Virus record (IMG/VR): IMGVR_UViG_2537562092_000003
DNA: 28,548 nt
Source: a virus
Lineage: Duplodnaviria > Heunggongvirae > Uroviricota > Caudoviricetes
Direction: 5' to 3' (one strand)
Positions 14,528 through 15,477 of this stretch are shown here, one piece after another; position 1 is the stretch's first letter; each line of letters starts with the position of its first letter. Under the pieces are notes generated by a model that worked only from the letters and a program-made list of their open reading frames with translations, did not search any database and was not told the DNA's origin. Position numbers and translations under genes: made by a program.

Positions 14528-14866
14528 ATGACACACAAGAGAATTCCTAAAGATTGGGTAATCAAACGCTCAACTCCGTTCTTCACAAAAGAGAACGTAC
14601 CTTCAGCATTATTAACACATCATAATACAGCAGCAGGTGTTTTTGGGCAGTTGTGCGTAATGGAAGGCACTGTAACATATTATGGTTTTGCTGATGAGAA
14701 TACTACTGAACCAGAGATAAAAGTAGTTATTAATGCTGGCTCTTTTGCAACAAGCCCACCACAATACTGGCACCGTGTTGAACTAAGCGATGATGCTCAG
14801 TTTAATATTAACTTTTGGGTCGCTCCAGACTTCTCAGGCGAAAAAGTCTATAGCACCAAAAAATAG
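14528..14866 (+). CDS. DUF1971-family protein (YeaR / TehB N-terminal domain-like)
   Basis: RSTPFF...HNTAAGVFGQLCVMEGTVTYYGF...QYWHRVELSDDAQFNINFWVAPD parallels E. coli YeaR as recalled; SD TAGGAGG before the ATG at 14528. Confidence 0.65.
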   Translation: MTHKRIPKDWVIKRSTPFFTKENVPSALLTHHNTAAGVFGQLCVMEGTVTYYGFADENTTEPEIKVVINAGSFATSPPQYWHRVELSDDAQFNINFWVAPDFSGEKVYSTKK

Positions 14867-14895
14867 ATGATCATATTAAAAATGCTTTAACAGTC

Positions 14896-14934
14896 AGACC
14901 CGGCAGGGCTATCCCCGACGGGTCTCCTTTTTGT
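14896..14934 (+). terminator. Intrinsic terminator after the DUF1971 gene
   Basis: AGACCCG...CGGGTCT stem followed by CCTTTTTGT. Confidence 0.55.
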
Positions 14935-15477
14935 AAATATTTTGGTTCTACATTGCCAGGAGACTTCGACCATAAGAAGTAATCTGAATACTTAAGAAAT
15001 AAATTTACTTCAGATTAATGAGCGCACCTTGCCGGACAAAGATAAACCAGGCAAACGCTTTTTTTAGCCAGTATGTAATCAATCAGAAAGTCGCTCCATA
15101 AGAACAACAACAAGGCAATAAATTGCCACCACAGCCACTATTGCTAACGCACACTTCAGAACCAGCACAACAATCTCCTGTTTTTGACGTATACATACAC
15201 TGATAAATATGTGGCTTTGTACTCACTACTTCAATAAACAAGTGTCAGTGGTGCGTAATTAAATAATACAGTCTGTTTTCAGCCAGGAACAGACATCAGG
15301 TAAAAGAATGAAAAACTATTTTGAGCTACATCATAGCTACAAGATTTCTGCTAATTTCAAGATGAGCAGGTCATTGCTGGCATAGGTGACCTGCCTATTA
15401 GTCATGATGATTCGAAAATTACGGTCGGCATACCATATATAGAAACGTTGTGACACTCTGTTGACGTAATGTAAAAA

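Follow-up and report, generated by a model that had tools for sequence, protein, structure and literature searches.

A putative nitric oxide-responsive moron encoding an STM1808-type DUF1971 protein in a Rac-type prophage of Escherichia coli

The DUF1971 gene and its closest relatives

The closest described counterparts of the gene discussed here, which encodes a 112-amino-acid (aa) protein at positions 14528-14866 of a 28,548-nucleotide (nt) stretch of viral DNA (IMG/VR record IMGVR_UViG_2537562092_000003, called the window in what follows), are two enterobacterial genes of the DUF1971 family, STM1808 of Salmonella and yeaR of Escherichia coli. PMC7527575, citing Karlinsey 2012, ascribes a role in virulence to STM1808 and lists it as a 'putative cytoplasmic protein; NsrR regulon'. 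The yeaR gene is NsrR-regulated and is up 160-fold in nitrate-grown CFT073 (PMC5320621), and in uropathogenic E. coli it adds to oxidative-stress resistance and is regulated by NarL and NsrR (PMC4959519). Two further points of comparison are the 'tellurite resistance protein B' of Vibrio (Aliivibrio) fischeri, known as PDB 3DL3, and TehB of Haemophilus influenzae, the N-terminal domain of which is PDB 3M70. Here, we present evidence that the window gene is probably an NsrR-repressed, nitric oxide (NO)-derepressed moron of a Rac-type prophage, a unit of ~460 base pairs (bp; 14473-14932) that encodes a cupin-fold DUF1971 protein of the STM1808 type. Phage morons, in the concept of Hendrix and colleagues, are lysogenic-conversion genes with their own promoter and terminator, bor and lom of lambda being examples. 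A search of the accessible literature found no report of an NsrR-controlled prophage moron and no experiments on this locus.

The elements of the proposed unit, and one sequence whose membership in it is uncertain, are the following.

14473-14478, + strand: -35 hexamer TTGACA (from the sequence and its conservation)
14482-14486, + strand: CTCCT, complementary to the core AGGAG (14517-14521) of the Shine-Dalgarno (SD) sequence, and outer arm of an imperfect extended palindrome round the NsrR box (from the predicted RNA fold)
14490-14512, no strand assigned: predicted NsrR operator AAGGAGCATTCATAATGCATGTT, an 11-1-11 inverted repeat (matrix score 16.95 bits)
14496-14501 and 14500-14505, + strand: -10 region with two overlapping candidates, CATTCA (17-nt spacer) and CATAAT (21-nt spacer) (from the sequence)
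14517-14523, + strand: SD sequence AGGAGGT, 4 nt before the ATG (from the sequence)
14528-14866, + strand: coding sequence (stop codon 14864-14866) of a 112-aa DUF1971 cupin of the STM1808/3DL3 type (from the open reading frame and profile searches)
14896-14932, + strand: terminator-like hairpin AGACCCG...CGGGTCT (14896-14925), then CC and TTTTT (14928-14932) (from the sequence and its fold)

The protein is a full-length member of its family. As the original prediction had expected of a profile search, it matches all 80 positions of the Pfam profile PF09313 (DUF1971) with E 2.7e-26 and 91.8 bits, the cut-off being 23.1, and RefSeq annotates the same sequence identically, as WP_001326322.1 'DUF1971 domain-containing protein'. 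It also matches PHROG 34268, a family of unknown function (E 5e-78), and no PADLOC defence model at E up to 0.01. The likeness to YeaR claimed along the whole protein is indeed found (41% identity, BLASTP E 1e-32, with RSTPF, WH..E and FNI.F.VAP in common). However, the further idea of a phage copy of the host yeaR has to be given up, since at 41% identity the gene belongs to a different and more conserved DUF1971 subfamily, the STM1808/3DL3 type: PDB 3DL3 is matched at E 2.6e-59 with ~80% identity, and the YeaR structure 3BB6 at E 3e-25.

The 112-aa protein shares the cupin-like beta-barrel fold of 3DL3, 3BB6 and 3M70. Its residues His32 and His82 are invariant, and Glu85 is nearly so, in 29 sequences that run from YeaR to the Vibrio proteins, and the two histidines are said to be the zinc ligands of STM1808. 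The protein may be a metal-binding cupin that mitigates nitrosative or oxidative damage, although our confidence as to the chemistry is low. Some RefSeq records carry the name 'TehB family protein'. This is a domain-level label, as only the N-terminal part of the TehB equivalog NF008992 (NCBIfam; 289 positions) is matched, from 11 to 106, and the 48.5 bits reached are far short of the cut-off of 303. With 112 aa, a score below the cut-off and no C-terminal S-adenosylmethionine (SAM)-dependent methyltransferase domain, a TehB methyltransferase is ruled out, and it is by the lack of this domain that the prophage protein differs from H. influenzae TehB.

When each species was represented by one genome, a scan turned up 320 relatives, of which the best 80 are 75-83% identical to the window protein, except for one Shigella prophage copy at 97%. 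These 80 include chromosomal genes of Kluyvera, Leclercia, Citrobacter, Klebsiella, Raoultella, Salmonella diarizonae, Vibrionaceae, Shewanella and Oceanospirillales. The protein falls in a Salmonella-wide cluster, and the closest orthologue tested is that of S. diarizonae, encoded after nhaB-dsbB, collinear with the window protein (113 against 112 aa) and 79% identical to it over 112 aa without gaps. Going by the gene order of strain LT2, we take this type of locus, which is found downstream of dsbB in Salmonella and Citrobacter, to be STM1808. STM1808 and the prophage gene are both single-gene units, with an NsrR box laid over the -10 at -38 to -50 and with His32 and His82 in the product. 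The prophage copy differs in lying in a phage cargo slot and not after dsbB, in combining a perfect TTGACA -35 with a weaker -10, and in its GC content at third codon positions (GC3), which is 0.32 against 0.54 in Salmonella.

Since the gene lies in the Rac prophage and not after dsbB, a position not essential to its function, we regard it as a transferred copy. In a neighbour-joining tree the prophage alleles form a long branch of their own, separate from Salmonella and sister to the Kluyvera/Leclercia clade, and their GC3 of 0.32 is below that of any enterobacterial chromosomal orthologue (0.39-0.68). The long branch and the low GC3 argue for an old, AT-ameliorated phage resident and not for a recent copy of any sampled chromosome. 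In E. coli K-12 the dsbB site carries no STM1808-type gene, as umuC follows dsbB directly there. The prophage gene was found in 466 of 5426 complete E. coli genomes and is intact in each of the 37 copies examined. Judged by the median dN/dS (ratio of nonsynonymous to synonymous substitution rates) of ~0.18 among eight distinct prophage alleles, its coding sequence is under purifying selection.

The promoter, its predicted NsrR operator and the autonomy of the unit

To score NsrR operators, we made a position matrix of the 26 distinct 11-1-11 sites that Table 4 of PMC5320621 gives for CFT073; in leave-one-out tests the known sites score 7.8-29.3 bits, the hmp site 16.8. On this scale AAGGAGCATTCATAATGCATGTT is the top match of the whole 28.5-kilobase (kb) window, with 16.95 bits against 11.7 for the runner-up, and it equals the functional hmp and ydiC sites. 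The chance of such a score is 8e-7 per position under the composition of the window and 7e-6 under the local AT-rich composition, the latter amounting to ~0.001 over the 150 nt that precede the gene. When the whole window was shuffled 300 times with its dinucleotides kept, 11 of the shuffles had a site of this score somewhere. Moreover, the right half-site (AACATGCATTA, - strand) ranks in the top three of all half-sites of the window. The predicted operator begins 11 nt downstream of the -35 and encloses the two -10 candidates; a further 4 nt separate it from the SD sequence. The -10 element is ambiguous, but both candidates fall inside the box, and NsrR would occlude either. Additional half-sites further upstream were considered and rejected, as of the AATGCAT motifs at ~14320, 14372 and 14504 only the one in the box scores well, with no enrichment.

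The same arrangement recurs in the chromosomes of relatives. Nearly all Enterobacteriaceae chromosomal orthologues have a box of 19-29 bits at -38 to -50 from the ATG, the top match of each ~8-kb locus, and in the prophage copies examined a box of 17-27.5 bits is found without exception, at -37 or -38. Boxes of 15 bits or more occur in 64 distinct promoters, of which 50 are chromosomal and 14 prophage-type; each of these boxes tops its ~8-kb locus and lies at -37 to -66 from the ATG. In 64 of 64, a -35-like hexamer (TTTACA, TTGACG, TTGCCT or TTGACA) is found 17-18 nt upstream of box positions 7-12, which in the chromosomal orthologues read as a -10-like TATTTT, CATATT or TATATT. The gap of 11 nt between the -35 and the box of the window is kept in the 50 distinct chromosomal promoters, whether the hexamer is TTTACA, TTGACG or TTGCCT. 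Within the prophage copies, TTGACA is invariant in 27 haplotypes, though the 49 nt downstream of it are a diversity hot spot, and the SD block GGTGGTTATG is likewise invariant. The conserved -10 register reads CATTTA in the prophage copies and CATTCA in the window allele, and 4 nt on comes TATAAT, which is CATAAT in the window.

The gene had originally been proposed to be an independent transcription unit that runs opposite to the phage operon and has a strong SD sequence. The SD sequence is as claimed, and so is the orientation, the genes on either side (DUF1367, YbcO, Q-like and lysis genes on one, DUF977 and replication genes on the other) being all on the - strand. Independence is in turn supported by the conservation of the putative operator and of the -35, by the antisense placement and by the behaviour of the DUF1971 module, which is present or absent among related phages. 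Copies of the window type, which occur in ~340 genomes and share 95-99% identity over 14250-14960, have the terminator-like hairpin. It is limited to this type, as a second prophage type departs from the window sequence immediately past the stop codon, where a convergent hok is located.

The unit thus looks like a moron on several counts, the activity of its promoter and terminator being predicted from the letters. It is an apparently autonomous unit set between genes of a phage operon, it is patchy among similar phages, and its base composition deviates, with 29-39% GC in the island 13650-15500 against ~50% in the flanking genes. Like other morons it would be regulated by a host factor and not by the phage repressor; the difference is that the regulator proposed here is NsrR.

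The proposed circuit and its alternatives

The promoter plan would be the one seen in the enterobacterial chromosomal orthologues, a -35 followed after 11 nt by an NsrR 11-1-11 operator laid over the -10. In a lysogen, the host [Fe-S] repressor NsrR would sit on the operator and keep the gene off. NO, coming from host defences or from nitrite respiration, would inactivate NsrR, and sigma-70 RNA polymerase, freed in this way, would start ~15-20 nt upstream of the very strong SD sequence and produce a transcript that the hairpin and T-run would terminate ~65 nt beyond the stop codon. The protein, with His32, His82 and Glu85 in a barrel of the metal-binding type, would add tolerance to nitrosative/oxidative stress, and the beneficiaries would be strains whose chromosome carries only the distant paralogue yeaR. 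The lysogen would then probably gain an NO-inducible stress protein, with NsrR binding, NO induction, transcription start, termination and protein activity all being predictions.

Several findings weigh against this circuit. There is no canonical -10 at 16-18 nt from TTGACA, as CATTCA, with its 17-nt spacer, matches the consensus at 2 of 6 positions. Furthermore, a scan for consensus promoters and terminators called neither on the + strand at the gene; both fell outside its spacer and loop limits, and we relied on comparative evidence instead. The promoter originally proposed from TTGACA is therefore only partly sustained: the hexamer is there, and its role as a -35 is supported by its position across orthologues and its invariance in prophage haplotypes, but the canonical -10 and a scan call are missing. 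Much the same can be said of the terminator, for which hairpin and T-run are present, but which was missed by the scan and is of moderate stability, its fold of -19.5 kcal/mol being modestly better than shuffles (z -1.85). The window operator is also the weakest allele seen, with 17 bits against 19.6-27.5 in other prophage copies, and two changes within the box set it apart from an allele that scores 25.7 bits. Nor is the whole protein family under NsrR control, since most orthologues in Vibrionaceae, the group of the 3DL3 protein, and in Shewanella are without a box. Finally, the Rac prophage is defective, as several of its tail genes are truncated, and H-NS might silence the AT-rich island.

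These points could be read as signs that the gene is a passenger, captured with a chromosomal promoter of which the NsrR box and the -10 have since drifted, and now silent (for instance through H-NS) or expressed at a low constitutive level, with no benefit under NO. The window allele does have the lowest box score of all copies and a 2/6 match of the -10 in the conserved register, the promoter scan was empty, and the prophage is defective with an island of 29-39% GC. The operator region is, moreover, a diversity hot spot: among prophage copies, nucleotide diversity (pi) is 0.115 in the 49 nt 14479-14527, against 0.018 in the coding sequence and 0.004 in the 40 nt just upstream, and box scores vary from 17 to 27.5 bits across nearly identical genes (the allele AAGATGCATTTTTAATGCATGTT scores 26.7 bits). 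However, even the 16.95 bits of the window are those of the functional hmp and ydiC sites, and its right half-site is still one of the top three. The -35 and the SD sequence do not vary, and the coding sequence is purified by selection and intact in every copy. We therefore consider a passenger unlikely and prefer the NsrR-repressed moron.

Could the unit be wired instead as a second yeaR, activated through NarL/NarP by nitrate/nitrite in addition to derepression from NsrR? The kinship with YeaR is real (a common Pfam family and fold, and a small stand-alone protein), the yeaR promoter region also has an NsrR box, AAATGGTATTTAAAATGCAAATT, and one perfect NarL heptamer, TACTCCT, lies at 14431-14437. 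Yet a lone heptamer is at chance level (expectation ~1 per kb), and neither a NarL 7-2-7 pair (at most three mismatches) nor an FNR site (at most two mismatches) is found in 14300-14530. The consensus -35 suggests that an activator is unnecessary, and the box lies at -38 from the ATG, with a short 5' untranslated region, whereas that of yeaR lies at -87. No yoaG-like partner follows, as there is no + strand open reading frame of at least 30 aa in 14867-15477. With 41% identity to YeaR, no yoaG (DUF1869) and no NarL/NarP 7-2-7 site, the gene is neither a true YeaR orthologue nor part of a yeaR-yoaG operon, and control of the yeaR kind is very improbable. The comparison with chromosomal yeaR, which the original prediction had recommended, thus holds for the NsrR box and fails for the NarL site and the position of the box. 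Since NarL and FNR sites and a yoaG partner are missing and the yeaR box is placed differently, the signal to be expected is NO via NsrR and not nitrate via NarL.

We give hardly any credit to a phage-directed role, in which release of NsrR would send polymerases into collision with early-right transcripts before the Q-like gene, so that NO modulates the late genes and the protein is secondary: its geometry fits, the unit lying antisense between the replication and the DUF1367/YbcO/Q genes, but the protein is 75-83% identical from Enterobacteriaceae to Vibrionaceae and under purifying selection, the same promoter-operator plan exists in chromosomes without a phage operon, and many related phages lack the unit. 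A combined version strikes us as very speculative too; there, an NsrR-gated head-on promoter would, under NO, both turn on the stress protein and throttle late-gene read-through, so that in relatives that can be induced the decision for lysis would be tied to NO, with the 17-27-bit operators as an allelic series that sets the NO threshold.

The NsrR box of the proposed moron lies in an imperfect palindrome, the upstream arm of which is the CTCCT listed above. This arm is an uncertain member of the unit, as only transcripts begun further upstream than the predicted promoter would contain it. In the window allele, the predicted RNA fold of arm and SD sequence has -14.4 kcal/mol and only CTCCT and AGGAG pair. 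In several other alleles the palindrome extends and the upstream arm pairs with the SD sequence (-20 to -25 kcal/mol, z -5 to -6), and single compensatory steps can be seen, from CCCTC/GAGG through CCCTC/GATG to CCATC/GATG. The covariation test is weak: in three pairs both partners have changed, the share of paired cells is 85.8% (83.3% in shuffled data), and 40 of 500 shuffles reach the covariation score. The extension is also lineage-specific: strong in Citrobacter, absent in Kluyvera/Klebsiella types and weak in the window allele. Given the weak covariation and this distribution, we do not claim the pairing with the SD sequence as a functional part. An extended palindrome could insulate translation from read-through transcripts, or could equally be a by-product of template-switch mutation in a quasi-palindrome.

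In Citrobacter (six loci and others), the NsrR box lies within a palindrome of 41-45 bp, at about -62 to -16 from the ATG, the flanks of which are complementary at 10-11 of 12 positions and show the compensatory variants CATCTAT/ATAGATG, CATTTAT/ATAAATG, CACCTAT/ATAGGTG and GCTTTAT/ATAAAGC. In Kluyvera and Klebsiella types, flank complementarity is at chance level only. Selection and quasi-palindrome templated mutation are both possible origins of the Citrobacter flanks.

A Fur box was rejected for the prophage copy, where 11 of 19 matches are at chance level. In Kluyvera, Leclercia, Pantoea, Enterobacter pasteurii and Buttiauxella, a Fur-box-like 19-mer occupies a fixed place (-83 to -85 relative to the ATG) that shortly precedes the -35, and matches at 13-17 of 19 positions GATAATGATAATCATTATC, which we take to be the Fur-box consensus. 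This suggests dual control by iron and NO in the chromosomal orthologues of the Kluyvera/Leclercia clade.

The prophage, its cargo slot and the place of the unit

The window is identical, over the stretch compared, to the sequence of E. coli DETEC-P829 (NZ_CP116106.1), the annotation of which spans it from sitD to intR and adjoins ttcA. Judged by its gene content (intR, xisR, ralR with the RalA small RNA (sRNA), recET, kilR, sieB, ydaT, ydaV and trkG), the prophage is a Rac-type lambdoid. The RalA antitoxin sRNA is found at 26814-26992 (- strand; Rfam RF02694, 225 bits), opposite ralR as expected for Rac; this is a known feature, as is the presence of trkG within the prophage. The - strand carries all of the immunity-right, replication, nin-like, Q and lysis genes. 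On the opposite strand, the DUF1971 unit has the replication genes (17.2-19.6 kb) to one side and the DUF1367/YbcO/Q genes (13.66-12.23 kb) to the other, with DUF1367 and QueH as its nearest neighbours.

This slot (window 13658-16825), bounded by the replication genes and by DUF1367 in the ninB position, is a cargo hot spot in Rac-type phages, as seen at three loci. The cargo varies as follows.

This window: DUF1971 and QueH
FDAARGOS_448 prophage: DUF1971, hok and KilA-N (vB_EcoS-666R9 is similar)
vB_EcoS-683R6: S8 peptidase and FtsH-like protein
Rac-SA53: rem and hok/mok

An apparent minimal boundary of the cassette at 14464 in strain AR_0128 was rejected, as it is due to an IS3-family insertion and is not a natural edge of the module. 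A second segment, 14148-14227, is swapped outright in some prophage copies (pi 0.35). Rfam has no match in 13600-16900 at E up to 1, and the long AT-rich spacer upstream of the gene corresponds to no known RNA.

The QueH gene that adjoins the unit (15478-16146, - strand; Pfam E 1.2e-65) encodes an epoxyqueuosine reductase, and the same prophage has tRNA-Gly and tRNA-Thr genes at 11726-11876 (- strand). QueH is separate cargo, since a QueH module (86% identity) stands alone in phage HannyBb. A linkage between the DUF1971 gene and QueH was rejected, as each gene is found apart from the other in other phages; a prophage-encoded tRNA-modification enzyme may merit a study of its own. Further along, a 90-aa open reading frame at 16417-16689 (+ strand; WP_000686865.1, hypothetical) also runs against the direction of the phage operon; searches of Pfam, NCBIfam, PHROGs and PADLOC gave no match to it. 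A promoter-like TTTACA-16-TATACT (10 of 12 matches) lies at 13743-13716 on the - strand, ~60 nt upstream of the DUF1367 start (13657), and the nin-like and Q genes could be driven from it independently of the early-right promoter.

As for the biology, the stress-linked lysogenic conversion first suggested for this gene is supported at its core by the putative operator and by the behaviour of the module, but not in its nitrate signal or in its origin as a yeaR copy. E. coli K-12 lacks an STM1808-type gene, while Salmonella, Citrobacter, Klebsiella, Kluyvera and others keep one by dsbB or elsewhere, and ~9% of complete E. coli genomes carry the gene on a Rac-type prophage together with the putative operator for a host repressor. 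An NsrR-regulon gene that travels as a prophage moron would, if the prediction is true, be cargo regulated by a host sensor and not by the phage, and the prophage would plug a ready-wired gene into the NO stress regulon of its host. The prophage copies would then also offer a natural allelic series of NsrR operators on a near-constant background, suited to the study of operator strength, and a handle on the biochemistry of the DUF1971 family.

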